Source: Stegostoma tigrinum
Lineage: Eukaryota
Assembly (NCBI RefSeq): GCF_030684315.1
Contig: NC_081396.1
Span: 5,828,001 to 5,892,000 of the forward strand
Direction: 5' to 3'
DNA: 64,000 nucleotides
In this document: positions 1-61,880 of the stretch, in pieces
Layout of the letters: each line of letters begins with the position of its first letter
Numbering within the stretch: position 1 is the stretch's first letter
Position numbers and translations under genes: made by a program
The notes under the pieces: model-generated
Told to the model about the DNA's origin: nothing
The model's database searches: none
The model's input: the letters and a program-made list of their open reading frames with translations, nothing else

Positions 1-590
1 CTGTCTCAGGCTTGCTGCAGTGTTCCAACGAAGCTCAATGTATGCTGGAAGAACAACACCTCATTTTCTGCTTGGGGACAATGCAGCCCCCTGGACTCAA
101 TATTGAGTTCAATAATTTTAGGGCCTGAACTGTCCCATGTCATAGCCCACCACCCCACAGACAAGGCCTTGTTATCAATAGTCTGCCAATATACACTGCC
201 TATTGTTGGCTACTAAAAGTCTCCATTAACAACTGTTCACCCTTCTAGACAGATGATTATCTACTCCTTTTTCTGTCCACTGCTCTTGTTTTCTTTTCTG
301 ATGAAGGGTCTAGGCCCGAAACGTCAGGTTTTTTGCTCTTTAGATGCTGTGCTCATCCAGCCCCAAAATTTGTTTTTTCTGTTCTTCTCTTTCTTTGGGT
401 TCTATCCCCAGCTACTGTTTACTCCTTACTCCTTCCCCCACTATCTTCTGCATATAAACCAATATTTTCCTAGTTAGCATCAGTTCTAACTAACGGTCAA
501 CAGACCCAAAATGTTAACTCTAGTTTCTCTTCACAGATGCTGCCTGACCCCACTCAACTTTTCCAGCAACTTCTGTTTTTGTGTCAACAA
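1..590 (+). mobile_element. Decayed 3' end of a Penelope-like element (family B terminus) with a short nested family A piece
   Basis: gaagaacaacacctcattttctgcttggggaca...ctcaatattgagttc resembles the EQxLIFRLGTLQPxGxNxxF ORF end seen at 3.4 kb. Terminus acagatgctgcc...ttccagcaacttctgttttt at ~530-580. Boundaries approximate. Confidence 0.65.
298..327 (+). ncRNA. Minimal type I hammerhead ribozyme motif (family A)
   Basis: CTGATGA-a-GGG-tctagg-CCC-GAAA-CGTC-ag: catalytic core boxes, short stem II, palindromic ACGT at stem III. Confidence 0.7.
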
Positions 591-759
591 CGTCAGAGTC
601 TGAACACCAAAGGTCGATTCTAATGCTGTTGATATTGTGAGATTCCATCCTCTCGTGTTTTTTTACACAGCCCACACCCAGTCCTTCGATGACATCAGTT
701 GCTTTAACACAGTCAGCCATTCTCAACTACACCCAGGCTCTTTATCACATTAGTCAATA

Positions 760-1510
760 AATAGAACAAAGAAAATTACAGCACAAGAACAGGGCCTTCA
801 GCCCTCCAAGCCTGTGCCAATCCATATCCTCTTTCTAAACATGTTGCCTATTTTCCAAGGATTTGTATCCCTCTGTTTTGTTCCCTGCCTCTTTGTGTAT
901 CCGTCTAAATATATCTTAAATGACACTATGATGCCTGCCTCTACCACCTCCGCTGGGAACATGTTCCAGGCACCCACCACCCTCCACATAAAGAACTTTC
1001 CACGCATATCTCCCTTCAACTTCTCCCCTCTCACCTCTGAATTGTGACCCCTATTAATTGAGTCCCCCACTCTGGGAAATGAATTCTTGCTATCCACCCT
1101 GCCTGTACATCTCACGATTTTGTAGACCTCAATCAGGTCCCCCCTCAACCTCCGTCTTTCTAATGTAAATAACCCTAATCTACTCAATCTCTCTTCATAG
1201 CTAGTGCCCTCCAAACCAGGCAACATCCCGGTGAACCTCCTCTGCACCGTCTCTGAAGCATCCACATCCTTTTGGAAATGTGGTGACCAGAACTGTATGC
1301 AGTGTTCAAAATATGGTCGAACCAAAGTCTATACAACTGTAACATGACCTGCTAAATCTTGTACTCAACATCCCCGCTGATGAATGAAAGCATGCCATAT
1401 ATCTTCTTGGCCACTCTATCGACCTGCGTTGCCACCTTCAGGGTACAACGGGCCTGAACACCCAGATCTCTCTGTGCATCAATTTTCCCCAGGACTTTTC
1501 CATTTACCGT
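760..1510 (-). mobile_element. CR1-clade (HER1-like) LINE 3' fragment
   Basis: ORF 798-1325: VRPYFEHCIQFWSPH..VQRRFTGMLPGL..YEERL..LFTLERRRLRGDLIEVYKI, the typical CR1 ORF2 C-terminus. Confidence 0.9.
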
Positions 1511-2049
1511 ATACCGTGACGTGGAGCAGGAAAATCACAGCAGGTCAGAAAGCATCCTAGGAGCAGGAAAGTCAATGTTTCGGGCCTAAACCCTTCGCTT
1601 GGCCCAACACGTCTGCACCAACCAAGTTCCCCAAACTAAACTTGTCCCATTTTCGTGAGTTTGGTCCAAATCTCTCTAAACCCTTCCGATCCAAATGTCT
1701 TTTAGATGTTATAATTGCACCTGCCTCCCCCACTTACTCTGCTCTCTCAGATTCTCCAGCATCTGCAGTTCCCCCTATCTCCACCACTTTCTCCGGCAGC
1801 TCCTTCCGTGTACCCTCTGAGTGAAAACGTTACCCTCAGGTGCCTTTAAAATATCCCCCCCCCCTCACCTTCAACCTCTGCCCTCTAGGTTTGGACTCCC
1901 CTGCCCTGGGGCAAGGACCTTGTCTGTGCCCCTCGCGCTGGGTTTCAGTTTTTGTTTGGCATGTTGCATGCTTTCCACAGCAATTAGAATTGAAGGGCCG
2001 ACTGTTTCAGGTTGATTCCCCCCATGGGAAGAACGCAGAGCCCCTTCAC

Positions 2050-2460
2050 TGCCTGCAAGGGGGAATGATGCCCATTTGCACCCGAGGAGAGCAGTGCGCA
2101 GGCGCCGTGCGGGTGTGGGGCGGGGGGGGCGAACGGAGCGTGCGCAGGATGAGGACCCGCGATGGCGAACGGTTCCTGCTCGGCTCCAAAAATCGGTGAG
2201 ACGGAGGCAGCAAGGGGCGGAGCGGGGCTGGGGAAGTCTGCGAAAGTAACATCGAGCGAAGAGTACACTCAGGGCAGAACTGACCGGGTCCCTCCTCTTG
2301 TCCGGGGTTGGTGCCTGAACTCCCGTCTTTCGGCTCACTTCACGGCCGCCATCTTGTTGGGTGTGAGATGGTGCGCGTGCGCGTCGCCATCTTTATTGGG
2401 GAACAAAGGTTGGGTGGGCGTTCGGCCGCCATCTTTGTAGGGGGCGACAGCAACGAGGGG
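2050..2460. promoter_or_regulatory. CpG-rich putative promoter with three YY1 motifs and NRF1-like sites
   Basis: CGCCATCTT at ~2347-2355, ~2385-2393 and ~2427-2435. TGCGCAGGCGC at 2095-2105 and GTGCGCGTGCGC at 2371-2382. High CpG density against a CpG-poor background. Confidence 0.7.
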
Positions 2461-2550
2461 CTGAAGTGGAATTCACTCAGATTGGCAAGATAATAAAATG
2501 TGAGGCTGGATGAACACAGCAGGACAAGCAGCATCTCAGGAGCACAAAAG

Positions 2551-2580
2551 CTGACGTTTCGGGCCTAGACCCTTCATCAG
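2551..2580 (-). ncRNA. Minimal hammerhead ribozyme motif (family A)
   Basis: Reverse complement of CTGATGAAGGGTCTAGGCCCGAAACGTCAG. Confidence 0.7.
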
Positions 2581-2850
2581 AGAGGGGGATGGGGGGAGGG
2601 AACTGGAATAAATAGGGAGAGAGGGGGAGGCAGACCGAAGATGGAGAGAAAAGAAGATAGATGGAGAGGAGAGTATAGGTGTGGAGGTAGGGAGGGGATA
2701 GGTCAGTCCAGGGAAGATGGACAGGTCAAGGAGGTGGGTAACTTCTGGAGATGAAGAGGTCGAGGGAGGGTAGGAGGCCTGGGGGTGGTGTCCAGGAGGA
2801 GGACTTGTGTTGGAAGCGGGTGAAGGGGCCAGTGGAAGGAGGGTTAGGTT

Positions 2851-3633
2851 CCCCTCACACCCCGCCCCCGCCACAACCGCCCTAAGAGGATCCCACTCGT
2901 TCTCACACACCACCCTACCAACCTCCAGATACAACGCATCATCCTCCGACATTTCCGCCATTTACAATCCGACCCCACCACCCAAGACATTTTTCCATCC
3001 CCTCCCCTGTCAGCTTTCCGGAGAGACCACTCTCTCCGTGACTCCCTTGTTCGCTCCACACTGCCCTCCAACCCCACCACACCCGGCACCTTCCCCTGCA
3101 ACCGCAGGAAATGCTACACTTGCCCCCACACCACCTCCCTCACCCCCATCCCAGGCCCCAAGATGACTTTCCATATTAAGCAGAGGTTCACCTGCACATC
3201 TGCCAATGTGGTATACTGCATCCATTGTACCCGTTGCAGCTTCCTCTACATTGGGGAAACCAAGCGGAGGCTTGGAGACCGCTTTGCAGAACACCTCCGC
3301 TCAGTTCGCAACAAACAACTGCACCTCCCAGTCGCAAACCATTTCCACTCCCCCTCCCATTCTCTAGATGACATGTCCATCATGGGCCTCCTGCAGTACC
3401 ACAATGATGCCACCCGAAGGTTGCAGGAACAGCAACTCATATTCCGCCTGGGAACGCTGCAGCCTAGTGGTATCAATGTGGACTTCACCAGTTTCAAAAT
3501 CTCCCCTTCCCCTACTGCATCCCTAAACCAGCCTAGTTCGTCCCCTCCCCCCACTGCACCACACAACCAGCCCAGCTCTTCCCCCCCACCCACTGCATCC
3601 CAAAACCAGTCCAACCTTTCTCTGCCTCCCTAA
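2851..3633 (+). pseudogene. Penelope-like ORF C-terminus: Cys-rich linker plus GIY-YIG endonuclease (5'-truncated, RT missing)
   Basis: Frame reads ..RIPLVLTHHP..AFRRDHSLRDSLVRS..CNRRKCYTC.. and continues into ORF 3163-3633 NVVYCIHC..LYIGETKRRLGDRFAEH..VANHF..EQQLIFRLGTLQPSGIN. Confidence 0.85.
3511..3612 (+). repeat. ~39-bp tandem repeat (NQPSSSPPPTASQ-like) at the PLE ORF end
   Basis: aaccagcccagctc(g/t)tcccctccccccactgcatcccaa units. About three more copies at ~4555-4660 in the second PLE. Confidence 0.75.
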
Positions 3634-3857
3634 CCGGTTCTTCCTCTCACCCATCCCTTCCTCCCACACCAAGCCGCACCCCCAGCTACCTACTAACCTC
3701 ATCCCACCTCCTTGACCTGTCCGTCTTCCCTGGACTGACCTATCCCCTCCCTACCTCCCCACCTATACTCTCTCCACCTATCTTCTTTACTCTCCATCTT
3801 CGGTCCGCCTCCCCCTCTCTCCCTATTTATTCCGGCTCCCTCTCCCCATCCCCCTCT

Positions 3858-3887
3858 CTGATGAAGGGTCTAGGCCCGAAACGTCAG
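3858..3887 (+). ncRNA. Minimal hammerhead ribozyme motif (family A)
   Basis: CTGATGAAGGGTCTAGGCCCGAAACGTCAG. Confidence 0.72.
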
Positions 3888-4135
3888 CTTTTGTGCTCCT
3901 GAGATGCTGCTTGGCCTGCTGTGTTCATCCAGCCTCTCATTTTATTATCAAGGAGGTGGGATGAGGTTAGTAGGTAGCATCCCACCTCCTTGACCTGTCC
4001 GTCTTCCCTGGACTGACCTATCCCCTCCCTACCTCCCCACCTATACTCTCTCCACCTATCTTCTTTACTCTCCATCTTCGGTCCGCCTACCCCTCTCTCC
4101 CTATTTATTCCAGTTCCCTCTCCCCATCCCCCTCT

Positions 4136-4165
4136 CTGATGAAGGGTCTAGGCCCGAAACGTCAG
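4136..4165 (+). ncRNA. Minimal hammerhead ribozyme motif (family A), tandem partner of 3858
   Basis: Identical 30-mer 278 nt downstream of the 3858 copy. Confidence 0.72.
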
Positions 4166-4345
4166 CTTTTGTGTTCCTGAGATGCTGCTTGGCCTGCTGT
4201 GTTCATCCAGCCTCACATTTTATTATCTTGGAATTCTCCAGCATCTGCAGTTCCCATTATCTCTTCACTCAGATTGGCAACTGCATCGAAAGTGGAAGCA
4301 GGAGCCTGTCCGGCCATTCAGCCTGATCATCCAACACAACATCCT

Positions 4346-5035
4346 TTGCAGAACACCTCCGCTCGGTTCGCAACAAACTACTGCACCTCCCAGTCGCGAA
4401 CCATTTCCACTCCCCCTCCCATTCTTTAGATGACATGTCCATCATGGGCCTCCTGCAGTGCCACAATGATGCCACCCGAAGGTTGCAGGAACAGCTTGGG
4501 AACCCTGCAGCCCAATGGTATCAATGTGGACTTCACAAGCTTTAAAATCTCCCCTTCCCCCACCGCATCCCAAAACCAGCCCAGTTCGTCCCCTCCCCCC
4601 ACTGCATCCCAAAACCAGCCCAGCTCGTCCCCTCCCCCCACTGCATCCCAAAACCAGGCCAGCCTGTCTCTGCCTCCCTAACCTGTTCTGCCTCTCACAC
4701 ATCCCTTCCTCCCACCTCAAGCCACACCTCCATTTCCTACCTACCACCTCATCCCGCCTCCTTGACCTGTCCATCTTCCGGACTGACCTATCCCCTCCCT
4801 ACCTCCTCACCTATACTCTCCTCTCCACCTATCTTCTTTTCTCTCCATCTTTGGTCCGCCTCCCCCTCTCTCCCTATTTATTCCAGAACCCTCTCCCCAT
4901 CCCCCTTTTCTGATGAATGGTCTAGGCCCGAAAGGTCAGCTTTTGTGCTCCTGAGATGCTGCTTGGCCTGCTGTGTTCATCCAGCTCCACACTTTGTTAT
5001 CTTGGATTCTCCAGCATCTGCAGTTCCCATTATCA
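4346..5035 (+). mobile_element. Second 5'-truncated Penelope-like copy, inserted in a CR1 3' end
   Basis: TSD CCAACACA(A/G)CATCCT at 4331-4345 and 5036-5050. Frameshifted end of the GIY-YIG ORF and a variant hammerhead at 4910-4939. Confidence 0.85.
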
Positions 5036-5050
5036 CCAACACAGCATCCT

Positions 5051-7535: not shown

Positions 7536-7670
7536 ACCAGAGATATAGGAACTGCTGATGCTGGAGAATCTGAGATAACAGGGTGTAGAGCTGGATGAAC
7601 ACGGCAGGCCAAGCTGCATCAGAGCAGCAGGAAAGCTGATGTTTCGGGTTGGACCCTTCCTTCTCTGATC
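7536..7670 (-). mobile_element. Penelope-like terminus fragment
   Basis: Reverse of the family A terminus (gctggatgaacac..gcaggccaagc..gtttcggg). Confidence 0.7.
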
Positions 7671-7759
7671 AACATCCGTGAACCTGTTAGGTCTGTTATG
7701 ACAATCGGGTAGCCTTCATGTTCCCTTTCTGCTGACACCCAACACCAGTGATGACCAGA

Positions 7760-7996
7760 GATAGTAAGAACTGCAGATGCTGGGGAATCTGAGATAAACA
7801 AGGTGTGGAGCTGGATGAACACAGCAGTCCAGGCAGCATCAGAGGAGCAGGAAGGCTAGACCCTTCGGGCCTAGACCCTTCTTCAGAAACTTTTTATGAA
7901 CATTTCTGAAGAAGGTTCTAGGCCTGAAACATCGGCCTTCCTGTTCCTCTGATGCTGCTTGGCCTGCTGTGTTCATCCAGCTCTACACCTTGTTCT
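7760..7996. mobile_element. Palindromic Penelope-derived insertion
   Basis: Inverted termini around degenerate hammerheads (7864-7886 minus, 7906-7935 plus). TSD ACCAGTGATGA(C/T)CAGA at 7744-7759 and 7997-8012. Confidence 0.8.
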
Positions 7997-8181
7997 ACCA
8001 GTGATGATCAGATTCATTCAGCTCAATTGGTGGGCTCGCTATCACTCCCTTTCTTTTCATTCTCTCCCCCTGTTTTGATGAACCTTACAGGTGATTAGAA
8101 AAGGAGGACTTCAGGGCAGGAAACTCAAAACTAAACTTCACGGATGGCTCGCCCAAAGTTGTCCGAAGTGGAATACTGAGC

Positions 8182-9300
8182 ATGGAAGGAGAGAGATCTG
8201 CGTGCAGCATGGAGAAATCACACGCGTGTTCCAGGTGCGGGCAAGGCTTCGCACAGCCTGACCTGTCCCAACACAAATGCGGTCGTGCCGGGGAGAAGCC
8301 GTGGAAGTGCGGGTGCTGCGGCAAGGCCTTCCGTTACCCGTGCTACCTGGAATCCCACCAGCGCAGCCACACAGGGGAGAGGCAGTTCGCCTGCCCCGAG
8401 TGCGGGAAGCAATTTGCTCAGTCATCCAGCCTGCAGAAGCACCAACGGGTCCACACTGGGGAGAGGCGGTTCCGCTGCTCGGCGTGCGGGAAGGGGTTCG
8501 CAGAATCGTCCCACTTGCTGAGGCACCGGAGGGTTCACACCGGGGAGAGGCCGTTCGCCTGCGCTGAGTGCGGCAAGGGCTTCACCGAGCTGTCGAGCCT
8601 GCAGAGGCACCGGAGAGCCCACAGCGGGGAGAGGCCGTTCGCCTGCGCCGAGTGCGGCAAGCGCTTCACCGATTCATCCATGCTGCTGACGCACCGGAGG
8701 GTCCACACCGACGAGAGGCCTTTCGGGTGCCCAGACTGCGGCAAGCGCTGCAAGAGCCCCCGGGACCTGACGTCCCACCGGCGGGTCCACACCGACGAGC
8801 GGCCGTTCCGCTGCTCCCGCTGCGGGGCCAGCTTCAAGACGCCATCGGCCCTCACGAAGCACCGGCGGGTCCACACTGGGGAGAGGCCGTTCGCATGCCC
8901 CCGCTGTGGGGCGAGCTTCAAGCAGTCCTCTCAGCTCGCCGTCCACCAGCGGGTCCACACCGGGGAGAGGCCATTCGCCTGCTCCGAGTGCGGGAAGGCC
9001 TTCGCTCAGTCGTCCCACCTGCAGATACACGAGCGGGTTCACTCCGAGGAGAGACCCTTCCGGTGCCCGGACTGCGGGAAGACCTTCAAAAGCTCCGGAG
9101 AACTGATGCTTCACCAGCGCGTTCACACCGACGAGAGGCCCTACCGATGCTCCCACTGCGGCACCGGGTTCCGGAGATCGTCCGACCTGGCAGAACACCG
9201 GCGTGTTCACACTGGGGAGAGGCCGTTCACCTGCTCCGAGTGCGGGAAGGGATTCACTCAGTCGTCCACTCTGCTGAGGCACCAGCGCGTTCACAAATAA
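8182..9300 (+). CDS. C2H2 zinc-finger protein, 12 intact fingers plus 1 degenerate, no effector domain
   Basis: 372-aa ORF with CxxC-x12-HxxxH repeats and TGERPF linkers. Polypyrimidine tract and CAG acceptor end at 8090. In-frame TGA at 8092 implies the ATG lies in this exon. Confidence 0.9.
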
Positions 9301-19789: not shown

Positions 19790-20746
19790 TCAGAACAACT
19801 TGTCCGCAGAATGAATATGCTGGTGCTTGGTGAGTTGAGACTGTTGCCTGAACTCAGTTCCACAGATGGAGCACCCGAACGGTCTCCCATCCGTGTGGAC
19901 ACGTTGATGGGACATCACCTCCGTGGGGCTTTTGAAGGGCTTGCCGCAGACCAGGCATTTGAACGGCCTGTCCTCCCTATGAACTCGCTGGTGGTTTAGC
20001 AGGGTAGATAAGCGAGTGAATGTGTTCCCACACTCCGCGCAGGAGAAGGGCCTCTCCCCGGTGTGAATTCGCTGGTGCTCAGTGAGGGCCGATGACCACT
20101 TGAACCCAGTGCCGCAGTGAGAGCACCGGAACGGCCTTTCTTCGGTGTGAACACGCTGGTGGAGTATCAGCTCCCCAGAACTTTTGAAGCCCTTCCGACA
20201 GTCCGGGCATTTGAATGGTCTCTCTTCAGAGTGAACCCGTTGATGGGACATCAGATCCCTGGAACTCTTAAAACACTTCCTGCAGTCTGGGCATTTGAAA
20301 GGCCTCTCTTCAGTGTGAACACGTTGATGGGACATGAGATTTCCAGAGCTTTTGTAGCTCTTTCCGCAATCCAGGCAGTTGAAAGGTCTGTCCTCGGTGT
20401 GAACTCGCTGGTGGCGTGTCAGTTCCCCGGAACTTTTAAAAGACTTCCTGCAGGCCGTGCACTTAAAGGGTTTCCAGTCAGTGTGAACACGCTGATGAGA
20501 TGTCAGACTGCCGGAGCTTTTGAAGCACTTCCCACAGTCTGCGCATTTAAAAGGCCTCTCCTCGGTGTGAATGAGACAGTGCCTTAACAGACTGGACGAC
20601 TGAGTGAACCCCTTCCCGCACTCAGTGCAGGTGAACAGTCTCTCCCCCGTGTGACTCCGTCGGTGAGTTTCCAGCTCGGTCAAGTTAAAAGGAATCCTGC
20701 CCCACAGTCCATGCATTTCCAGGGTTTCACTCCAGGGCGACCGCAT
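19790..20746 (-). CDS. C2H2 zinc-finger protein, 10 intact fingers; first finger frameshifted (gene or young pseudogene)
   Basis: 318-aa ORF. The family-type ATG at 20844 ([20 protein letters not shown]) hits a stop after a +2 frameshift near 20680-20690. Acceptor at ~20909. Confidence 0.65.
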
Positions 20747-21283
20747 GTGTGGTCCTTGAGGTCAGATTCTTGGCAGAAGTCTTGCCCACTCACAGGGATT
20801 GTGCAGGCTTCCGCCCCAGTGTGAGTGATGCTTACTCCTTCCATGTTCAGAATCCGATCACCTCTTCAGGTTGTTAGTTGAGAGTTGGCCAACTCCATCT
20901 GCGATAACCTTGTGAAATTGATTTGAAACAAAAGTAAAGGAATTAAAAACCCGTAAACAAAAGTAGGTTTAATAACCAGGGGGTGTGGAATCAGGGAAAA
21001 GTGACAATGAAAACTGCTGTATATTGTGATTGAAAGCCCAAGCAAGCAGACTCTCGGCCACCGGGGAAGGGCTCAGAGCCTAGTCCCTGTCAGCCCGCCC
21101 TCAACATGATCCACAAAACTGGCATATACTCAGGGCCTGTTTTTGGGAACAGCCTTGGTGCAATAAGTGCCTCCATTCCACACTCTCTCCACCCCCCATC
21201 CTCTTTCCATCGCTTCCTTTCTCATTCACATCCTTCCTCCCTTCTACGCCTCTCCCTCTCTCCCTCCTCTCTCAGTCACTCAC

Positions 21284-23827: not shown

Positions 23828-24002
23828 AAGATAACAAAGTGTGAAGCAGGATGAACACAGCAGACCAAGCAGCATCTCAGGAGCACAAAAGCACCCGAAA
23901 CATCAGCTTTTGTGCTCCCGAGATGCTGCTTGGCCTGCTGTATTCATCCAGCTTCACGCTTTGTTATCTTGGATTCTCCAGCATCTGCAGTTCCCATTAT
24001 CT
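23828..24002. mobile_element. Palindromic Penelope-derived insertion
   Basis: Perfect TSD CTCATCCACTCTGCCT at 23812-23827 and 24003-24018. Inverted arms ~65 bp. Confidence 0.85.
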
Positions 24003-25607
24003 CTCATCCACTCTGCCTGTTCTTTTTCTTTGCTTCTCCCTCTTTACCACCCTTCTCTCAGCTTTGAACACCCGTCCCTGGCCTTTGACCCTCAACTCCA
24101 AAACAGGGCTGGCGGCCCAAAGTGGGGGCAGTGGCCCGATGCAGAGCCCCCTGCCCTGGTCTGCTCTAGAGAGCCTTTGATGACAGACTGTGATGTCTGT
24201 CTTTAACTTCTTGTTTTTCTGACCATTGGTTGTACTGCGTATAGCTGTAATGATTTATCTATTCTGTAACTGAGGGTTGCACCTAGGTCCCCTACTTAAG
24301 ATGGCGCTGTGATGATGACATTGTCACATAGTAAACTAATCTGGTAACTGAAAAAGCTGTACCAAGGTAACTTTGTACTTAAAATGGTGCTGTAAGCAGT
24401 GACTTATCAACTTTTCACTGTCCTCATTTGAGTACATGTGGCAATAAAGCTCATTCAATTCAAGAAAGACATTGTATCTGAAAGAGATGAATGGAAAAGA
24501 TTTCCTGGTTGGGTCCTTCTTTTCTCAATCGTGCTCAACACCAGCAAAGTGAACTGACCAGTACACAAGCAGATATCCAAAGTTCACCGAAATTTATAAA
24601 GGGTTGAACCAGACCTTTCGACCTTCATTCTAACATTGACACTTTGGACCAATGTGTTAGCCTTTGCCTTTAGTTCCATGACATGGTTGTTATTTAATCT
24701 CTCTCACCCTCCAAACCTGATCAGTGCCCCCTTTATCCAACAGCATATTCCTACCGATCTCATGCAAAAGCCCCCTGTTTCTCTGATGCTTTGACGTGTC
24801 TGCTGTAGGTTGTCTGAGTTACAAAGTACATAGGAGCACTGCTGCCCAGTAAACCGTGACCTTAGTCTCAGATTTGAGATCCTGGTCTTTAAATGCCCTT
24901 TTCCTCAATTGGATGGTCACAGTCTGGACTTGATGACAAATTTCCGTCATCTGTACATTGCTTTTGTTGAGAGGCGGCTCCCTAGGTATGAAAAATGGTC
25001 CACATGTTCCAGGATACTGCTGTTAATTGGTTGAGGAGGAGGGGTTCTGCTGTGTGAATTGGCTGGGTAAAGACTTTAAAACTTAATTCTATTTTCTTTT
25101 TGCATGATAGATGAAAGGCCTATTGTCTCTTGTGCTTCAGGAAGAACAATCAACAAATTGACCTGGGGCTCAGTTCTTCAGTGAGAAAACACACAAGCTG
25201 CGTCCGAACACCGAAGCTCCAGTCTACACCTACAAGGTTATATTCATCAAGTTACTCTCATGCAATACAAAAACATTCAAGATCCTTTGCAGGAGTCCCA
25301 GAAGGGCTTATTGAGGATGCTACACCAAGGTTCCATGCCTGCCCTCTCAGGCCACGTAAAAGATCTGCCTGTGATTTTGAAGGACAGCAGGAAAGCTCTC
25401 CCCAGTGGACAATATTTCACCTTCAACAAAACCTCACAAGAAACAGATCAGCACTGGTCATTATCACATTGCTGACTGTGGAGGCTCACGCCCACAGAAG
25501 ACATCCTGAAACTTGGAAATTAAATGCAAATACTGTTGTGTCCCAGACCAGTCACTGTGGTCAGCAGTGGGAGCATCAACAGTACTGCAGTGTCAAGATG
25601 AACGGGG

Positions 25608-26483: not shown

Positions 26484-26709
26484 CTGCGAATCCTCTCCCT
26501 GGGAATAAAAACAGGTTCATCTCAATCATTCATGTAATAAAACTGCAGGAGGAATTCAGAACAGAATTTCTGCCTCTACATTCTAATGGTTACTCTAGAA
26601 CCTGCTCACTCTGGTGAAATCAGTCTCTCTTGTGATTTCTCTGTCCTTTTAAATGATAACAGCAGACGGAAACAGTGTTCCTTCAAATATACAGGTTCTG
26701 CACAGAGGG

Positions 26710-41515: not shown

Positions 41516-41768
41516 GGTACCAAAACTGAAATTGCTAGAGAAACTCAGCGGGTCTGACAGCATCTGTGGAGAGAAAACGGTGTTAACATTTCTGGTCCAG
41601 TGATCCTTCTTCAGAACTGGTGAGTTAGGCAGCTCCGTATTAAAATATATAAACTCAGAACTTCACCTGAAACATTAACTCTAACTTATCGTTACAAATA
41701 CAGCAGAGTTTCTCCAGTAATGTCTGTTTTTATTTCATATCTCCAGCATTCACAGTTCGTTTTTTTTA
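41516..41768. mobile_element. Palindromic Penelope-derived insertion (family B) with a degenerate minus-strand hammerhead (~41582-41618)
   Basis: TSD AAGTTTAAAACGT at 41503-41515 and 41769-41781. Minus strand reads agtt-CTGAAGA-..-GAAA-TGTT-aac. Confidence 0.75.
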
Positions 41769-42186: not shown

Positions 42187-42314
42187 CTCTGATGAAGGGT
42201 CCAGGCCCGAAACGTCAGCTTTTGTTCTCCTGAGATGCTGCTTGGCCTGCTGTGTTCATCCAGCTCCACGCTTTGTTATCTTGGATTCTCCAGCATCTGC
42301 AGTTCCCATTATCA
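42187..42314 (+). mobile_element. 128-bp Penelope terminus-only insertion containing an intact hammerhead motif (42189-42218)
   Basis: TSD CTGATTA(T/C)AGCAGATG at 42171-42186 and 42315-42330. Motif CTGATGAAGGGTCCAGGCCCGAAACGTCAG. Confidence 0.85.
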
Positions 42315-42384
42315 CTGATTACAGCAGATGTTGTCTTGTCTTGTAAAGAGAATTTTATTGAAGGTGCAAGGACAGAATTGGTTT

Positions 42385-42960
42385 AGAACATACAGAACAT
42401 TGGACAGTACAGCACAGGAATGGTCCTTTGGCCTACAATGTTGTGCCAAACATGACACCAGATTAAACTAATCCCTTCTACCTGCCTTTGGTCCATATCC
42501 CTCCATTCCTTGCATATCCATGTGCTTATCTAAAAGTCCCTTAAATGCCCCTATCGTATCTGCCTTCAACACTCGTCCTGGCAGTGCATTTTCAGCCTCC
42601 TACCATTCTCTGTGTAAAAAAAAAACTTGTCCCTCACATCTCCTTTGAACTTTGCCCATCTCACCTTAAATGCATGCCCCATAATATTAGCTATTTCCAC
42701 TCTGGCAAAAAGGCTCTGACTATCAACCCTGTCTATGTATCTCAGAATTTTATAGGCACTTGTCAAGTCTCCCCTCAGCCTCCGTTGCTCCAGAAAAAAA
42801 AGTTTTTCTAGGCTCTCTTTATAGCTCGTACCTTCTAATTCAGACAGCATCCTGGTAAACCTCTTCTGCACCCGCTCCAAAGCCTCCACATCTTTTCTGT
42901 AATGTTGGTGACCAGAATTGAATGCATTCTGCAAGTGTGGCCGAACCAAAGTTCAAGCTC
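42385..42960 (-). mobile_element. CR1 3' fragment
   Basis: ORF 42566-42949 RKDVEALERVQKRFTRML..LEQRRLRGDL. Confidence 0.88.
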
Positions 42961-44714: not shown

Positions 44715-45821
44715 CAGTCATTTATGAGCTTGCTTATGCGCCAGTAGGTTGAAGGGCCTGGTGAATCCTTTCCCACACGCACAGCAGGTGAATGGTCTCT
44801 CTCTGGTGTGAACTCGCTTGGTGAACAAGGAGAGTGGATGAACATCTGAAACTCTTATCACAGTAAGTGCAGCTGGAAGGCTTCTCCTTAGTGTGAATTA
44901 GTTGGTATGACTTGAGAGCGGATGAAAGTGTGAATCTCGTTCCACACACGGAGCAGGCAAATGGTTTCTCCCGTGTGTGAATTCACCGGTGAACCATAAG
45001 ATCGTGCAACTTTGTGATGGTCTTCCCACATATAGGACAGGTCAGCAGCCCCTCCCCAGTGTTCGCTGAGGCCGTGCAAATGCTTGAACCTCCGTCCGCA
45101 GTGAGTGCAGCTGAATGGCTTCTCCTCGGAGTGGATCCGCTGGTGAGTCACCAGATTGGATGACTTTGTGAATCCCTTCCCACACATGGAGCAGGTGACA
45201 GGCCTCTCCCCAGTGTGAACCCGCCAGTGTTGATTCAGGTCGGACAAAGACCTGATCGTCTTTCCACAGTGAGTGCAGCTGAACGGCCTCTCCTCGCTGT
45301 GTATTCACTGGTGTAACATGATGGAGGATGTCTGAGTACATCCTTTCCTGCACACATAACAGGTGCATGGCTTCTCCCTGGTGTGTCTTTGTTGATGGAT
45401 TCCCAACTGAGATGTGTGATTAAATCCTTTCCCACAAATCAAACGTTTCCATGGTTTCTCCATGGTGTGGGTGTCCTTGTGGTTCTCAGGGGTTGGACCT
45501 CATCCATACACAAAACACACTGATAACATCCCACCCCGTACCGTGAATGTTTTGATGTTTCCCAGTTTGTGGAACTGGTTGCAGCTCTCTCCACTGTAGG
45601 TTCACCAGAACAATCTGACTTGGGTGCACACATCCGTCATTACTTTTCCAGTCTTGCTGAATATTCAATACCTTGTTTCAGAGACAGAACAGAGAAACAG
45701 TTCACTTTCCACAGTCAGAAGCTGATGATATACAGGTTCTGATGAACTGAGTGATTCTGTTAGATCCTGATGCGATGTTTGGTTTGAGTCTCCCATCTGA
45801 AAATCCTTCGCTTCTAAACAC
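44715..45821 (-). pseudogene. C2H2 zinc-finger pseudogene
   Basis: Finger fragments spread over several frames ([20 protein letters not shown]; [12 protein letters not shown]) with frameshifts and stops. Family leader exon starts at 45821. Confidence 0.85.
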
Positions 45822-46795: not shown

Positions 46796-47497
46796 TTACT
46801 TGTGAACCCGCTGGTGTCTCAGCAGGGTGGATGAGTGAGCGAACCCCTTCTTACACACGGAGCAGGTGAATGGCCTCTCCCCGGTGTGAACTCGCTGGTG
46901 TTCCAGCTGGTTGGATAAGGTAGTGAACCCCTTCCCACACACCGAGCAGGTGAACGGCCTCTCCCCGGTGTGGATGCGCTGGTGGGTCAGCAGGTTCGCC
47001 AGCTGGGTGAATCCTTTCCCACAGTCAGGGCAGGTGAAGGGCTTCTCCCCGGTATGAACCCGCTGGTGGACAGTGAGGTCAGATAACTGCTTGAACCCGG
47101 TCCCGCAGTCGGAGCATCGGAACGGCCTCTCATCGGTGTGGATGCGCTCATGTCGCATCAGCTCCCCGGCACTTTTGAAGCACTTGGCACAGTCCGGGCA
47201 TTTAAAAGGCCTCTCGTCAGAGTGAACCCGCTGGTGCGCCAACAGGTTGCACGACAGGGTGAATCCCTTCCCGCACTCAGAGCAGGTGAATGGTTTCTCC
47301 CCGGTGTGACTGCGCCGATGAGATTCCAGCTCAACTGGATAATTGAATCCTTTCCCGCAGTCCCCACATTTCCACGGTTTCTCACCGGTGTGGCAGAGCT
47401 TGTGTCGCGATAGGGCAGATGATCGGCCGAAGTCTCGCCCGCACACAGAGCAGGTGAACAGTTTCTCCCCGCTGTGAACAGTGCTTTCCCCTTCCAT
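46796..47497 (-). CDS. C2H2 zinc-finger protein, 8 fingers
   Basis: ORF from ATG 47497 (MEGESTVH..) to ..[12 protein letters not shown]. Acceptor tttcgcag, exon starting at 47605, with an in-frame upstream TAA. Confidence 0.9.
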
Positions 47498-48009
47498 GCT
47501 CAAGATCCAACGTTGTTCAATTTACGAAAAGTTGGCGGCTAAGTCAGGCACAAATGTGATGTATGGTTCAGGTCTCCCAGCTGCAAATCCTCTCCTTCTA
47601 ACACCCTGCGAAATTGAGTTAAAACAGAAAGAAAGGAAGCAGAAAGAGCCCATGAAAAAACACAAAGACAGGCTGTGAAGTTGAGCTAAACGAATCTGGT
47701 CATCTGTGGGAATGACATGAGGATAAAGCAGCCATGGGAAGATGCTGAACTACTATAAAAACTCAACTAATGGTCATCAGGGATGCGAACTTGTCACCCA
47801 GTCTGGAATTATGCCAGATTCTGGTTTCGCTGGGAGGGCAGACAGAAGGTGGAAGCATCAGAGGGTGCTTAACAAAACAGGATTTTACACATCCACACCT
47901 CAAACCATTACTAGCAGAATCTCCCAAACCCTCAAACTCCACCAACAAGAAGAATCAGGGCAGCAGGCGTACGTGAGCATCATCACCTCTGAAGATTCAC
48001 TTGGCTCGT

Positions 48010-49720
48010 TCCTGAGATGAAAGGGTTGACTTATCCAGAGCGACTGAACAATTTAGGCCCTGAGTTTAGAAGAATGATGGAGAACGTATCGAAACCTACA
48101 AAAGTCTGAGGATGATTGTGAGGGTAGATGAGCAGAGGATGCTGGAAATTTGAGAAGCCTGGGAACTATAGGCCTGTGAGCATGACATTGATGTTGGGTG
48201 TGTTGTTGGTGATTCAGAAAGATAGGATTTACATGCATTGGGAGAGGCAAGGAATGATTAGGAACAGTCAGCATGGTCTTGTGTGAAGGAAATCGTAACT
48301 CACAAATCCAATTGAGTTTTTTAAGAAAGTAACCAAAAACATTGATGAGGGCAGAATGGTAGACATTGTTTGTATGGACTTTAATAAAGCCTTTGACAAG
48401 GTTCTGCATAGTAGACAAACTAGTAAGGTTAGATCGCATGGAATTGCCAATTGGGTACAAAATTGGCTTGACAGGAAGGAGACCGCGGGTGGCGGTGCAC
48501 GCATTTTTTTCCAGACTAGAGGCCTGTGACCAGTGATATTCCACATGGATTGGTACTGTGTCCACTTTTGTTTGTCATTTATATAAATAATTTGGATGAG
48601 AATATCGAAGGCGTAGTTAGAGAGTTTGCAGATGCTGCCCAAAATTGGTAGTAAACTGGGCAGTGAAGATGGTGATCTAACATTACAAAGTGATATTGAT
48701 CAATTGCGTCAATGGGCTGAGGAGTGGCAGACAGAGTTTAATTTGGATGAATGCCAGGTATTGCATTTTAGTAAATCAAACAAGGGCAGAGCTTAACCAA
48801 TTAATGGTAGGGCCCTGGGTAGTGTTGTAGAACAGACAGACCAAGGGGCTCAGGTATATAATTCTTCGAAATTTGCGCCACAGATAGACAGGGTAGCTAA
48901 GAAAGCATTTAGCATCTTGCCTCAATTGTTCAGACATTGACTCTCCGAGTTGGAATGTCATGTTTAGGTTGTACAGGACATAGGTGAGGGCTCTTCTGGA
49001 GTAAGATGTACAGTTCTGGTTGCCCTGGTATGGGAAGGATATCATTAAGCTGGAGAGTGTTCAGCAAAGATTTACATGGATATTGTCGGGAATGGTGATT
49101 GAGGGGTGACCTTAGAGAGGTTTACGAAATAATGACAGGCACATATAAGGTAAATAGCAAGGGTCTTTTTCCCTAGAGTGAAGGAGTTGAAAACTAGGGA
49201 ACATTTTTTTTAATGAAAGGAGCAAGTTTTAAAATGGACATTTATACACAGCGTGGTTCACGTGTGGAATGAACTGCCAGTCAAAGTGATGGATGCAGGT
49301 ACAATGTTTAAAAGACATTTGGACAAGTACATGAATGGGAAAGGTTTAGAGGGATATGGGCCAAATGCAGGCAAGTGGGGGAGAGATAATGGGAACTGCA
49401 GATGCTGGAGAATCCAAGATAACGACATGTGGAGCTGGATGAACACAGCAGGCCAAGCAGCATCTCAGGAGCACAAAAGCTGACGTTTCGGGCCTAGACC
49501 CTTCATCAGAGAGGGGGTCTCTGATGAAGGGTCTAGGCCCGAAATGTCAGCTTTTGTGCTCCTGAGATGCTGCTTGGCCTGCTGTGTTCATCCAGCCCCA
49601 CACCTTTTTATCTTCTATTATGCTGGCAAGTGGGACTAGCTTAGTTTGGGAACATGGTCAACATGGGCTAGTTGGACCAAACAGTCCAGTTCTATGCTGT
49701 ATAACAATATGAGTGAAACT
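48010..49720 (+). mobile_element. CR1 LINE RT-to-3' fragment
   Basis: tatggactttaataaagcctttgacaaggtt (MDFNKAFDKV), agtttgcagatg (FAD), CR1 3' tail. Split by the palindrome at 49380. Confidence 0.85.
49380..49619. mobile_element. Palindromic Penelope-derived insertion with two back-to-back hammerhead motifs (49480-49509 minus; 49521-49550 plus)
   Basis: TSD ATGC(A/T)GGCAAGTGGG at 49365-49379 and 49620-49634. About 100-bp near-perfect inverted arms around a short gagggggt spacer. Confidence 0.88.
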
Positions 49721-51529: not shown

Positions 51530-53500
51530 ATAGAGTCACACAGCACAGAACCAGACCCCTTGGTCCAACTTGTCTTTACGGACCAAGTTTCCCAAACTAA
51601 ATTAGTCCCACTTGCCTGCATTTGGCCCATATCGATCCACATCCTTCCTATTCACTTACCTGTCCAAATGTCTTTAAAAGATTGAAACTAGACCCATATC
51701 CACCACTTCCTCGGGATGTTCATTCAACTCACAAACCACTGTGTTAAAGTAATTGCCCCTTACGTCTTTAAATTTTTCTCCTCTTACTTTAGAAATATGC
51801 CCCTGAGTCTTGAAATCTCCCACCCTAGTGAAAACACATTTGCCAAATCACCTTATTTACACTCCTCATGATTTTATAAACCTCCATATGGTCAGCTCTC
51901 AACCTCTACATTCCAGTGAAGTAAAGGCCCAGACTATCCAGCCTCTCCTTATAACTCAAACCGTCCATTCCCAGCAACATCCTGGTAAATCTTCTCTGAA
52001 TCCTCTCCAGTTTAATAATATCTTTCGTATAACAGGGAGACCAGAACAGGACACAGTGCGCCAGAAGGGGCCTCACTGACATCCTGTACAACCTCAACAT
52101 ATTGTCGCAACTCTTAAACTCAAAACAAAAACAGAAGTTGCTGGAAAAGCTCAGCAGGTCTGGCAGCATCTAAGAAGAAAAAAAAAATCAGATTTAACGT
52201 TTCGGGTCGGGTTCCTCAGAACACTCAAAAGTCTGAGCAATGAAGACAAGCGTGCTAAATGCATGTTTTTCCTACCAAAATGAAGTACATCACATTTCTC
52301 TGCAATGAACATCATCTGCTATAAACCACTCACTCCGGCCCCTTGTCTACAACTTTTGGAAGCTCAATACTATCATCCTGACAATATATGATGCATCTAA
52401 GGTTTTGAGCAAAGAACAAAAAAATACAGCATGGGAACAGGCCTTTCAGCCCTCCGAGCCTGCACCACCACATTTTGCCCTTCCAAACTAAAACTGTCTT
52501 CACTTACAAAATCTGTATCCTTCTATTCCTTTCCTTTTCATGTGTTTGTCCAGGTACTTAGTGAATGCTGCTATTGTGTCTGCTGCCACCATCTCCTCTG
52601 GCAACACATTCCAGGCACTCATTTACCCTTTGTATAAAAAACATGCCTCACACATGTCTTTTATGCTTCCCCGCTCACCCCTTGAACCTGTGTCCCCTAG
52701 TAACTGGCCACTCCACCCTGTGGAAAAAAACCTCATACTTTCCACTCTACTGGTGTCATTCACAATCTTTTAAACTTCCATCAGGTCACACCCTTCAAAA
52801 TTCTGCGTTCCAGTGAAAACAAAAGCCAGTTTGGCCAACTTCTTTTCATAGCTAAATTCCCTCATACCAGGCAACATCCTAGTAAACCTTAGTGACCCTC
52901 TCCAAAGCATCCACATCCTTCTGGTAGCGTGGTGACCACAACTTTATGCAATATTCCAAGTGTGGCCTAACTAAAGTTCTGTAAAGCTGCAGCATAATTT
53001 GTCAATGCTGATACTCAATGCCCCTTCCAAGGAAGGTAAGCATGCCATAGGCATTTTTTACTACCTTATCTACCCACATTACCATCTTCAATGAACTGTG
53101 GACATCCACACCCAGATCCCTGTGCATATCAATACTCTTATGAGTTCTGCCATTCATTCTATAGTTTCCACCTGTGCTTGACATTCCAAAATGCATCACC
53201 TCACATTTGTCCCGATTAAACTCCATCTGCCATCTTTCCTCCCATTCCTCCAACTGATCTGTATCCTCTGACTAGCCTCATCACTATCCGCAAGTCCACC
53301 AATCTTTGTATCATCCCCATACTTACTAATTAGACCAGCTATGTTTTCCTCCAAATCATTTATAGAGATCACGAACAGCAGAGGTCCCAGCACTGATCCA
53401 TGCAGAACATGCTAGTCACAACCCTCCATTCTGAAAAGCATCCTTACCCCCAGTCTCCTATGACTAAGCCAGTTCTGGATCCATCTTGCCAGCTCACACT
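51530..53500 (-). mobile_element. Tandem CR1 fragments with a nested family B Penelope terminus (~52120-52222)
   Basis: ORF 53196-53393 LGPLLFVISINDL..SKYGDDTKIGG and ORF 53002-53253 WQMEFNRDKCEVMHFG. Nested minus-strand ttCTGAGGA..cccGAAACGTTaa. Confidence 0.85.
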
Positions 53501-54990: not shown

Positions 54991-55199
54991 ATAAGAGATA
55001 ACAAGGTGTGAAGCTGGATGAATACAGCAGGCCAAGCAGCATCTTAGGAGCAGAAAAGCTGACGTTCCGGGCCTGAGGGTCTAGGCCCGAAACGTCAGCT
55101 TTCCTGCTCCTAAGATGCTGCTTGGCCTGCTGTGTTCATTGAGCTCCACACCTTGTTATCTCGGATTCTCCAGCATCTGCAGTTCCCAGTATCTCCGAA
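54991..55199. mobile_element. Palindromic Penelope-derived insertion
   Basis: Inverted arms meet at gggcctgagggtctaggcccgaaacgtcag (CTGATGA box lost). Likely TSD AAGTC(A/T)TGAA at 54981-54990 and 55200-55209. Confidence 0.8.
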
Positions 55200-55463: not shown

Positions 55464-55500
55464 ACACAAGCTTTCGGAGCCTCAGTCCTACTTCAGGTGT
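55464..55500 (-). ncRNA. Hammerhead-like motif, family C (one core substitution), in a distinct repeat fragment
   Basis: Minus strand reads acac-CTGAAGTA-GGA-ctgaggc-TCC-GAAA-GCTT-gtgt: stem I acac/gtgt, stem II GGA/TCC, palindromic AGCT. Confidence 0.55.
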
Positions 55501-56691
55501 GAGAGAGAGATGCAGTATCAGACACAGAATTTATCAGCAAAAGATCAAAGTTCACACCATTGATGAGAATCTACTAAACAAACCTAACATGCTGTTTAAT
55601 CTTTATTCAGTTAGAAGGTTTTAATTGATTAATACATTAAATCCCCAAATTTACTCATCTCATCTCTGAGACACCTGGTGGACCATAACGTATAGCATCA
55701 TACCACACAGAAAGAGATCTTTCAGTCCAACTTGTCGATGCCAAGTTTCCCAAACTAAACTACTCCCATTTGTCTGTATTTGGCCCATATCCTCTAAACT
55801 TTTCCTATTCATGTACCTTCCAAAAGTCTTTTAATTCACTTAATGTAGTAATCACCAGGTAGCAATCAAGAATGCTTCTTACGAATGTTCATCTGGACAA
55901 CCTGTATGCCCTGGATAAACTGCAGTGTTTCCTTTATCTGTTTAGTTCAGAGTTTGAAAATTTAAATTTTAGAATTAAAATCCGGAATTGCTCAACTTGC
56001 CACTGGCAGGGAGTCACATTGATTAAAAGGAAGCTCAAAAATAGCACTGAAATCATAAGGTATTCCATAGTCAGGACTGTATCACTAAATCGTGCCAGTA
56101 ATTTAACTTACAGGTGTAACTGCATCCTGGCTGCTAACACATAGGTAAATCACTGACTTGGCCAAGCAGCAAGGGATGTGGAAGCTTTTGTGCTCCTGAG
56201 ATGCTGCTTGGCCTGCTGTGTTCATCCAGCCACACATTTTATTATCCAGGGATGTGGGGTCTATTGGCCAATTAAAACTCTGAATTGCAAAACCCACACA
56301 CCAGGCTCACTGCAAGCACAGCAGCTAGGTGTCAATGACATTAGCATAATGTAAAAGGAAACAGTTATCCTGGACAGGCATACCCCCAATGATTTATCCA
56401 CCAAACAAAGGAGGGTCCAGACAGAAAGGCACCGGGTCCTGCTACATAAAAAAGCGAACAGTAGCAAGCCATTCAAATAACTGACATTGTTTCAAACTGA
56501 TTGGTCAGAACTACACAAAGTTCCAGAAAACCATCTCAAAAGGTATAAGAATGGGATTCACCTGCACACTGTTCTCTTGGAATCTCTTGCATTATCTGGG
56601 GCCTTCTGAGGAGGCCAGTGTGGCAAGGAGCATACATCAACTGACCATCTAGAGAGGAAGAAAGTAGCCTTGCCGACCCAGAGACAGTGCC

Positions 56692-59480: not shown

Positions 59481-59489
59481 TGGCAAGGT

Positions 59490-59722
59490 GTGGGAGCAGA
59501 TCATTCAGCCCCTCAACCCACTGAACAGCATGGCACCCCGACCCACGCTTTCCCCGTAAACCCTGTGTTTCCAGTGGCCAATCCACCTAACCTGGACATC
59601 TTTGGACTGTGGGAGGAAAGCAGAGCACACCCACGCAGACACGGACAGTCAACCCGGTGGAATCAAACCTGGTTCCCTGGCACTGTGAGGCAGAGTGCCA
59701 ACCACTGAGCCGCCGTGCCGCC
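59490..59722 (-). mobile_element. HE1-like V-SINE (internally deleted)
   Basis: Reverse ggcggcacggcggctcagtggttggcac..ggtttgattcc. Confidence 0.7.
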
Positions 59723-59949
59723 CCTGCCAGGGACCATTGAACTGCCTTTCCAGTCACGGTAGGTCAAAGGAGCAGACACAGTGCCGCCAGTGGGCGGGGC
59801 TCGATCTGTCCCTTTTGGGAGCCCTGCCCACTGGGAGGCAAGGGGCGGGGCAGCTCCCAGAGCGGCCTCTCGCTCCGGCCAGAGCCGGTCGCCCTGGAAA
59901 CCTCGCAGCGGCTTTGGGTTGGGGAGGGTGGGAAGGCAGTTTGTTGGGT

Positions 59950-60220
59950 GGCATTTCTGTGACTGCTGCTTTTGCTTTTCAAGATGGAAGTGATCAGGGG
60001 TTTTGGAAGGTGCTGTCTGAGGATCTTTGCTGAATTTCTGCAGTGCATCCTGTAGATAGTACACACTGCCGCGACCGAGCATTCGGGGGTGGGTGCTTGT
60101 GAACGTGGTGTCAATCAAGTGGGGGCTACTTTGCCCTGGAATGCGTCAAGCTTCCTGACTGCACTTGGGGCTGCACCCATGCAAGACACGTGGGAAGTAT
60201 TCCCTCACGCCCCTCTTGCG
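59950..60220 (-). mobile_element. LINE ORF2 C-terminal fragment (L2/CR1 group)
   Basis: ORF 59764-60114 VAAVCTIYRMHCRNSAKILRQHLPKP. Confidence 0.5.
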
Positions 60221-60654
60221 CTTGCTGTCAGAGGTGAGGATGACGCAGATAGGGAGGCGTAGAGCCCTTCAAAAGAAAATAAGCCGTTACAAACATTTAA
60301 AAGACACCTCCACATGGTTTAAAACAAGGCTGGTTTATTTGAGATTTAGTCGAGAATACTAGCCCCTAACGTTAAGCTGTCATCAGCAGAAACAGACTAC
60401 AAGATGACAAACAGGACTAAACCGTGATGTTATTTCAAAAGCAGCAGAATCCTGTTCTACTGGTTTATTCATGAGTGTCTCAAGCAGTTTGGACAAATGG
60501 GTAACTTCCTCCCCACATACTGACCAGTCTCTCCCCCGTGTGAATTCGCTAATTTACAGCGACTTCAGCCGACTGCCTGAAATCCGTCTGGTGTTAAAAA
60601 GACTCGAAGCAATGTTGCTTTGTGGCATTTTCTGCACCGGGACGCTGAAAAGTT

Positions 60655-61194
60655 TTATTTGTTCGTGTGGGTCCGCTGGTGTTTTTGCAGGTTGACCGAC
60701 CGAGTGAATGCCTTCCCGCACTCGGAGCAGGAGTACGGCCTCTCCCCGGTGTGAGCTCGCCGGTGGTTCTTCAGGTTGGATGAGCAAGTGAACGCCTTGC
60801 CACAGTCAGAGCAGGTGAACGGCCTCTCCCCTGTGTGAACCCGCCGGTGTTCCTGCAGGTTGTACGACCGAGTGAACCGCTTCCCGCAGTCGGAACAGGT
60901 GAACGGCCTCTCCCCTGTGTGAAGCCGCTGGTGGATCACCAGGGTGGATGACCCAGCGAAAGCCTTCCCGCACGTCGAGCAGGAGAACGGCTTCTCCCCG
61001 GTGTGGCAGCGCCGGTGAGCTTCCAGGTCCGACGGGTAACCGAACGCTTTCCCGCAGTCATCGCACTTCCACGGCTTCCCCTGTGTGTGACTGTGCTCAT
61101 GTTTCCACAGTCCAGACCATCGGCTGTAGGCCTGCCCGCATACAGAGCACAGGTACCGTTTCTCCTCACTGTGAACAGCGCTGTTCAATGCCAT
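60655..61194 (-). CDS. C2H2 zinc-finger protein, 6 fingers
   Basis: 179-aa ORF with TGEKP/TGERP linkers. Acceptor tttcacag, exon starting at 61286. Decayed fingers follow the stop. Confidence 0.87.
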
Positions 61195-61740
61195 GTTTGA
61201 ATCTGATCATGTCCAGGAGCCGAGAAACCGGGTGACTCGGTCAGATCCTGATGTTGACGTTTGAGTTTCCTGACTCTACTAATACTCTGTGAAACTGATT
61301 TAAAAACAGAAAAATAAAAAGGCAGGGAGGTGAGAGAGAAGCCACATAAACAGAGGTTCTGTCTGAAATGGAGCTGAATGGATCTGGCCATTTTGGAGCA
61401 GCACAGGGAAACAGTAAAAGAAAGAGAGAGGGGGACCAGCAGAGCATGTGTACATGAACATCACCACAGAGCTCCCCTCTGAGTTGCACAGTGCCCTGAT
61501 CTTTCTGCCAGTTGGTCCTCAACAAACACAAACATCTTCTGGTTAAATAGTGGAAAAACTGACGCCATTGTCTCGCTTCCAATGCACATTTTTAACAAGT
61601 CAATTCCCATCGCTGGCCTCGGTGATCTCCACTGACCCTGCTCGAGCAACTGTCTAAGAACTCCATGCTGTTCTTCAGCACACGTACACCTCTGCCCCTC
61701 TCCCCAAGCACTGAGAGATGTTCAAAATCCAAAACAAAAG

Positions 61741-61880
61741 CAGTTCTGAGGAAGGGTCACTCATTCCGAAATGTTACTCTGATTTCTCTCCGCAGATGCT
61801 GCCAGACCTGTTGAGATTATCCAGCAACTTCTGTTTTTGTTTCTGATTTACAGCATCTGCAGTTCTCTTGGCTTTCATTT
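61741..61880 (+). mobile_element. Penelope-like terminus (family B) with a degenerate hammerhead
   Basis: agtt-CTGAGGA-agggtcactcattcc-GAAA-TGTT-act..cagatgctgccagacctg..cagcatctgcagttctc. Confidence 0.7.

Follow-up and report, generated by a model that had tools for sequence, protein, structure and literature searches.

Minimal hammerheads of Penelope-like elements in Stegostoma tigrinum and junction counts suggesting occasional cutting in vivo

The minimal hammerhead ribozymes of Penelope-like elements (PLEs) have been described with a dimer model and a low activity in vitro, a palindromic 15.2-16.2 pair being one of their published features (PMC4209133, passages on these motifs). For the anole element Poseidon PAc, the sections of PMC11167929 on its insertion describe two internal starts of the reverse transcriptase (RT), extension of both strands and protein-assisted cleavage, with uncut RNA as the main substrate, and a ribozyme which depends on protein and without which insertion in vitro still proceeds. 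Cutting in vivo by such ribozymes is at issue, and a genome holding about 10^5 young copies of a single family allows the matter to be addressed by junction statistics. The present work deals with 64,000 nucleotides of Stegostoma tigrinum (assembly GCF_030684315.1, contig NC_081396.1, positions 5,828,001 to 5,892,000 of the forward strand), henceforth the window, in which a preliminary description made from the letters alone had recognised three families of minimal hammerheads, A, B and C, scattered through a cluster of ZNF genes. With a probability of roughly 0.8, these are the hammerheads of the pseudo-long terminal repeats (pLTRs) of three PLE families, mostly dead stubs, and a small part of the family A RNA is likely cut in vivo by its ribozyme, which would probably act as a dimer helped by protein. 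The motif class as such is already published; the new part is the junction statistics for cutting by family A in vivo.

Motif families and their parent elements

A relaxed descriptor of the minimal hammerhead (CUGANGA, an optional base, a stem II of at least 3 bp, GAAA, a paired NN, and UH) found 8 matches in the window, where 30 windows simulated with a first-order Markov model averaged 0.07, and all 13 motifs listed in the preliminary description were recovered, although its minus-strand coordinates proved to be left ends and not C3. Core bases are numbered here, and their roles understood, as is usual for hammerheads. The C3 positions are 298+, 2580-, 3858+, 4136+, 4910+, 42189+, 49509- and 49521+ for family A, 486+, 41614-, 52219- and 61746+ for family B, and 55496- for family C. 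The search with hammerhead models that had been proposed was successful with the relaxed descriptor only, the Rfam covariance models giving no hammerhead match in the window up to E 10, but merely chance microRNA-like matches on inverted stubs; the motifs have neither loop 3 nor long stems. Although the silence of Rfam would suit an origin by chance, such an origin is refuted by the descriptor matches as well as by the family A 30-mer, which occurs 90,316 times without mismatch in the 3.2-Gb genome, its reversed control not occurring at all. A family B motif occurs 927 times with at most one mismatch.

Majority sequences were built from 141 copies of family A, 33 of B, 39 of C and 15 of a further family, D. 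All four retain both boxes, CUGANGA and GAAA, and form stems I and II, in which the changes between families affect both sides; in A, B and C, UH lies at the cut. The additional base noticed behind the CUGANGA box is indeed there, as a spacer between A9 and G10.1 which accompanies the G10.1-C11.1 pair in the families and is known from published PLE hammerheads (PMC4209133, same passages). Stem II, in turn, had been drawn too short as GGG/CCC and GG/CC, since it consists of GGGU/GCCC around a CUAG loop in A and of GGGUC/GACCC in B, while the box CTGAAGTA, taken for a feature of family C, is a mutation (A9>U) of the window copy, the majority of the 39 copies reading CTGAAGA and then A. Stem I measures 2, 4, 5 and 3 bp, and stem II 4-5, 5, 3-5 and 6 bp, in A, B, C and D, respectively, so that the stem I of family A has only two pairs; stem III is loopless and palindromic, reading AGCT in C and ACGT in the other three. 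The claim that all stems change while staying complementary holds for stems I and II, where the changes are paired, but the first pairs of stem II are common to A and B, as is the ACGT of stem III; these parts therefore change in C only, and the covariation amounts to three or four lineages, not to many.

Family D was seen in sampled loci and not in the window (L135, minus strand near 7790; L116:6614; others), at about 0.9 copies per 64 kb; it has U as the extra base, T-A/C-G/T-G variation between subfamilies in its stem II, and rare starts at the ribozyme 5' edge. Most copies of family C (L068-L096) show CACTAAC, a branch-point-like heptamer, 2 nt before the core, and in family B a pyrimidine tract with CAG stands at the same distance, recalling the intron end at helix I of the D. 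virilis Penelope. Downstream of the cut, A and B share a block (window 3886-3950, AGATGCTG...CCTGCTG...CCAGC...CAGCATC), which may be a protein-binding or RT-start element and from which the tails of C and D differ.

Six family A cores of the window are intact, while the four family B copies, described beforehand as decayed, are indeed all damaged in core or stems, as is the copy of family C (5/5 for the two families). The window copies are not independent, since 2580-, 3858+ and 4136+ all sit in a single insertion (2486-4264), whose target-site duplication measures 17 bp, and 49509- and 49521+ in a further one with a duplication of 10 bp. Additional family A stubs, unlisted earlier, lie at 1536-1596, 7538-7981, 23828-24007, 54996-55198, 56183-56246 and 63635-63742.

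The supposed link of the motifs with PLEs is demonstrated for family A and backed for B and C. In the case of A, an open reading frame (ORF) stands directly upstream of 3858, the motif lies downstream of the ORF in 30/30 loci, and full-length units of 3.6-4.0 kb are bounded by successive same-strand motifs (6 regions). The ORF fragment upstream of 3858 gave a weak GIY-YIG match and at least 150 genome matches at 97-98% identity, several of them in open frames of more than 1,000 aa. The full ORF is single, of about 1,080 aa, and comprises RT, a zinc linker and, at the C-terminal end, a GIY-YIG domain: its Pfam matches to RVT_1 and GIY-YIG are both under the curated cut-offs, its Atlas neighbours carry RVT_1, GIY-YIG and HTH_animal at 0.98, and its motifs include DKG, YIDD and a CX4CxxC linker (CNRRKCYTC at 912-920); a sequence search of the PDB with it gave no match. 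Hammerheads stand on both sides of it, one upstream, at 138 nt from the first ATG, and one behind the end of the ORF. According to the part of Craig et al. on element structure (bioRxiv 2021.04.23.441226), a CX2-5CxxC linker between RT and endonuclease (EN) marks the Neptune/Nematis elements, and by these sequence features family A is a young Neptune/Nematis-type PLE with endonuclease (EN+). For B and C, the end of a GIY-YIG ORF was found upstream on the same strand in 4/30 loci each, and in the window also before the B copy at 486; these sequences support both as markers of older PLE families.

Insertion ends and junctions at the predicted cut site

Insertion ends were studied in young family A copies (at least 92% identity; n=100, of which 98 away from edges) from the window and a random genome sample of 136 stretches of 10 kb (1.36 Mb), taken at round positions on large contigs. 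The insertions show the traits of EN+ PLEs, namely tandem and inverted pLTRs, a one-sided tail of 30-40 bp and target-site duplications. Counted from the cut, 51 of the 98 3' ends fall at +55 to +76 (around +64) and 41 at +90 to +112 (around +101), and the head-to-head pairs combine the two kinds of end: 13/16 had one short and one long end, none had two of a kind and three could not be classified (p 1e-4 on the 13 classifiable pairs). At the other side, the junction rate is 5.0% per base at -28 to -36, which is the ribozyme 5' edge, against 0.07% upstream, and 29/64 copies that reach this edge stop there, compared with 3/35 over the next 129 bases. Family B shows a similar pile-up, with about 30 of 70-75 copies at -1 to -8 from C3. 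A subfamily artefact was rejected as the source of the pile-up, as 18 of the 31 upstream flanks are inverted arms and the others have no relation to one another; a splice acceptor was likewise rejected, there being no AG at the family A edge. The ribozyme 5' edge is probably the transcript start.

The short copies could also be read as a separate non-autonomous retrozyme or SINE (short interspersed nuclear element) family spreading through circular RNA, given the many stubs of 95-135 nt that start at the ribozyme 5' edge and the tandem retrozymes derived from PLE pLTRs which a preprint describes for one chondrichthyan (bioRxiv 2026.07.22.740005, passages on their origin). This is unlikely, since the stubs share 92-98% identity with the autonomous pLTR, have scattered starts and the same two tail ends, and occur in inverted pairs instead of tandem arrays. 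At three loci (L254, L255 and L252), direct joints were observed: the ORF start or the short tail runs into sequence that sets in again precisely at the cut, which may reflect template jumps or junctions of circular RNA.

Too few young copies of the random sample, with the window added, start at the cut (3/86), and genome-wide counts were therefore made, a cut-site junction being defined by two non-matching bases before the cut. There are 2,713 junctions at the cut, against 473 at +2 and 411 at -3, so that the copies starting at this point make up about 2% of the total, estimated at 143,000; the window holds one specimen, at 56183-56246, with a duplication of its own. Because many of the joints were inverted ones at AGCT, a control for microhomology at other palindromic 4-mers was needed, and perfect head-to-head joints were counted with 26-nt patterns for all five palindromic 4-mers from -40 to +60. 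AGCT, the first four bases after the cut, gave 682, and ACGT, GGCC, CTAG and the downstream GGCC gave 36, 69, 52 and 21; after correction of the controls for CpG decay, ACGT rises to 41, GGCC to 140 and CTAG to 106. The excess of AGCT joints over the controls is 5- to 32-fold, and is likely a fossil of cleavage in vivo, short of proof. These junction counts suggest that family A is cut in vivo at times, a reading of the genomic sequence towards which our judgement leans modestly.

In the mechanism that we propose, two ribozymes would be joined by a stem III made of their two ACGU (or AGCU) palindromes. RT would start inside the RNA at two end points, one for each strand of the target break, and would copy towards the RNA 5' end, so that many copies would stop at the ribozyme 5' edge, the likely start of the transcript, and most, from a majority of uncut templates, would span the cut site. 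If the template had been cleaved behind GUC, the two cDNAs would each stop in AGCT, which is self-complementary, and would anneal into a perfect head-to-head joint. The genome would then preserve a fossil record of cutting in vivo, in the form of the copies that begin at the cut and of mirror insertions made by two RTs running off one cut end, for which we consider the odds slightly better than even. If this is true, the cut joints and the pile-up at the 5' edge map both ends of the RNA, and explain the inverted pLTR with its one-sided tail.

A number of observations weigh against this reading. Inverted joints make up 24/30 of the cut-site junctions inspected, and about half of all are perfect AGCT palindromes; 'unique' junctions are 5/30 at the cut (four of them other element pieces and one a genomic flank) and 10/30 in the comparison set at +2, so that, with 1/30 at host DNA, a plain excess of cut starts with host flanks is unsupported. 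The scarcity of cut starts in the sample and window, given above, points the same way, as do the absence of family B starts at the cut (0 of 70-75 copies) and the four consecutive U directly behind AGC, which may cause RT to fall off without a cut. A G of the kind derived from a cap stood at 13/29 of the 5'-edge junctions against 6/34 (p 0.03), and in a larger set at 17/45 (p 0.10). Moreover, 83/98 young copies extend upstream of the cut, from which it follows that templates were mostly uncut or re-ligated. The family A monomer folds into an inactive hairpin pairing the core with the cut site (-11.4 kcal/mol), and its hammerhead-shaped dimer scores -5.5 kcal/mol, against -17.3 and -20.9 kcal/mol for B and C, as far as secondary structure goes. 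From this modelling the family A ribozyme looks weak alone, with its 2-bp stem I and a competing hairpin, which fits the low or protein-dependent activity described in the parts of PMC4209133 and PMC11167929 on this subject; in the anole element, the relevant section of the latter reports no RNA-seq reads ending at the cut.

The most serious alternative accepts the PLE origin and holds that family A never cuts, the AGCT joints arising when RT falls off after the U run or pauses at the base of the CUGAUG/CGUCAG hairpin, with subsequent annealing at the palindrome nearest by. To its credit stand the short stem I, the stable inactive hairpin, with a 3' arm extending to +1, the concentration of the excess among inverted joints and the many copies that reach upstream of the cut. 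Nevertheless, +2, where a structural stop would be expected, has 5.7-fold fewer junctions than the cut, non-palindromic joints also begin at the cut (12/30 loci), and the core has been retained in four families with differing stems. This alternative is hence regarded as possible, if doubtful.

The window and its ZNF cluster

Table 1. Hammerhead motifs and related PLE features of the window
Feature	Position	Strand	Evidence or remark
Decayed C-terminal end of PLE GIY-YIG ORF (family B element)	3..128	+	tblastn with family A ORF, 46.6% identity, E 1.5e-9; translation
Family A minimal hammerhead, intact	298..325	+	Stub 297-349 inside family B pLTR
Family B hammerhead, dead core	486..515	+	End of B pLTR; G5, G8, G12 changed
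17-bp target-site duplication, left copy	2472..2488	+	Right copy 4264-4280
Family A hammerhead, intact	2553..2580	-	Inverted pLTR 2486-2738 ending in short tail (+67)
5'-truncated PLE ORF	2854..3633	+	RT thumb end, CX4CxxC linker, GIY-YIG endonuclease; 97.7% identity with a full-length copy
Family A hammerhead, intact	3858..3885	+	pLTR after ORF; predicted cut after 3885
Family A hammerhead, intact	4136..4163	+	Partial tandem pLTR 3978-4264, long tail end (+100); same strand as core 3858, 278 nt apart
Family A hammerhead, damaged	4910..4937	+	G10.1, C15.2 changed; separate older insertion 4344-5034
Older family A-like stubs, decayed cores	7538..7981	both	7538-7659-, 7756-7887-, 7905-7981+
Head-to-head stub without whole core	23828..24007		Arms start +1/-11, end +66/+103; 16-bp duplication
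Family B hammerhead, boxes intact	41585..41614	-	Damage in stem II and at C15.2
Family A hammerhead, intact, loop variant	42189..42216	+	Stub 42187-42319 begins at ribozyme 5' edge
Head-to-head insertion	49382..49614		Arms end +100/+66; 10-bp duplication; cores 49482-49509- (intact) and 49521-49548+ (C15.2>U)
Family B hammerhead	52196..52219	-	Deletion in stem II
Head-to-head family A stub, both cores truncated	54996..55198		Arms end +65/+102
Family C hammerhead	55468..55496	-	A9>U against family majority
64-nt family A insertion	56183..56246	+	First base after predicted cut to short tail; flanked by 10-bp duplication (56172-56181, 56248-56257)
Family B hammerhead, boxes intact	61746..61775	+	Stems I and II damaged

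The motifs do lie in the ZNF cluster, as first described, but they are not specific to it: the window has 8 descriptor matches against 4.7 per 64 kb of the genome sample (p 0.10), and 5 exact 30-mers, stemming from three insertions, against 2.2 (p 0.07), so that its density is not significantly above that of the sample. The setting is incidental. Among family A copies decay occurs mainly at CpG, G12 included, with core and ACGT kept in 74/116, and no selection on the core was seen among the genomic copies, the core being no better kept than the tail, at core decay rates that are inflated by copies truncated in the core. Single genomic copies therefore likely decay without visible selection, with no likely role for the ZNF genes.

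This bears on the proposal that the ribozymes are kept by host selection to regulate ZNF genes, for instance by cutting pre-mRNA at the tandem pair 3858/4136, whose two intact copies could pair in cis and which adjoins a CpG island (2001-2500) and lies upstream of the ZNF exon at 8095. It is highly improbable, as the density is near the genome background, copies with target-site duplications lie on both strands, and the core decays at least as fast as the tail, G12 through CpG loss.

The CpG island (GC 0.61, CpG ratio 0.88) contains three GCCATCTT motifs, which we take to be of YY1 type, and probably serves as a ZNF promoter; at its edge sits the young PLE insertion (2486-4264) with its two intact same-strand ribozymes. 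Single-exon-like C2H2 arrays were noted at 8095-9300, 19790-20761, 25608-26516, 37537-38709, 44888-45419, 46796-47521 and 60655-61206, that at 44.7-45.4 kb being frameshifted. Dense decayed 3' ends of long interspersed nuclear elements (LINEs), presumably CR1-like, and tRNA-type SINE-like repeats occupy 798-1328, 42566-42952 and many other places; two frames from these repeats had no Pfam match.

Comparison with known systems

In a literature search covering main texts, no hammerheads of PLEs from cartilaginous fish were met with apart from the one chondrichthyan of the retrozyme preprint, and nothing on genomic junctions at a hammerhead cut, although either may be in print. With the published minimal hammerheads of PLEs, as described in the parts of PMC4209133 devoted to them, the motifs share the type I topology, the two boxes (CUGANGA and GAAA), a single base separating 9 from 10.1, the G10.1-C11.1 pair, the palindromic loopless stem III and the location in pLTRs, as well as the presence of several families per genome, mostly as single truncated copies. 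The hosts named in those parts are fishes, coelacanth, Xenopus and reptiles, with no cartilaginous fish among them, and the motif numbers given, about 4,000 in the coelacanth and 9,000 in Xenopus, compare with some 90,000 identical family A copies here. A further difference is the 2-bp stem I of family A, in which it resembles the D. virilis variant. The non-LTR retrozymes, as far as the preprint's description of them goes, likewise have type I hammerheads originating from PLE pLTRs, in one chondrichthyan; they are tandem arrays of non-coding units, whereas the window copies are pLTRs and stubs of coding elements, with a single partial tandem (3858/4136), attached to an ORF.

With the Neptune/Nematis EN+ PLEs, in the sections of bioRxiv 2021.04.23.441226 and PMC3846280 on their structure and insertions, family A has in common the C-terminal GIY-YIG, the zinc-finger-like linker and DKG, together with partial tandems, an inverted 5'-truncated copy, the 30-40 bp tail on one end, target-site duplications and palindromes at the inverted junction. 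Such palindromes were read by Arkhipova et al. 2013 (PMC3846280, in its treatment of these junctions) as self-priming on an antisense template; here, where they lie at the ribozyme cut, run-off on a sense RNA is favoured instead.

A further likeness is to PAc of Anolis carolinensis (Frangieh et al. 2024, sections on template and insertion), with which family A shares two internal RT starts bounding the tail, the extension of two strands, a hammerhead in the pLTR and a mainly uncut RNA template. It differs from PAc in its CX4CxxC linker, in its first ATG, which lies 138 nt after the cut and not inside the ribozyme, in insertion ends made of one short and one long tail, and in genomic joints that pile up at the cut.

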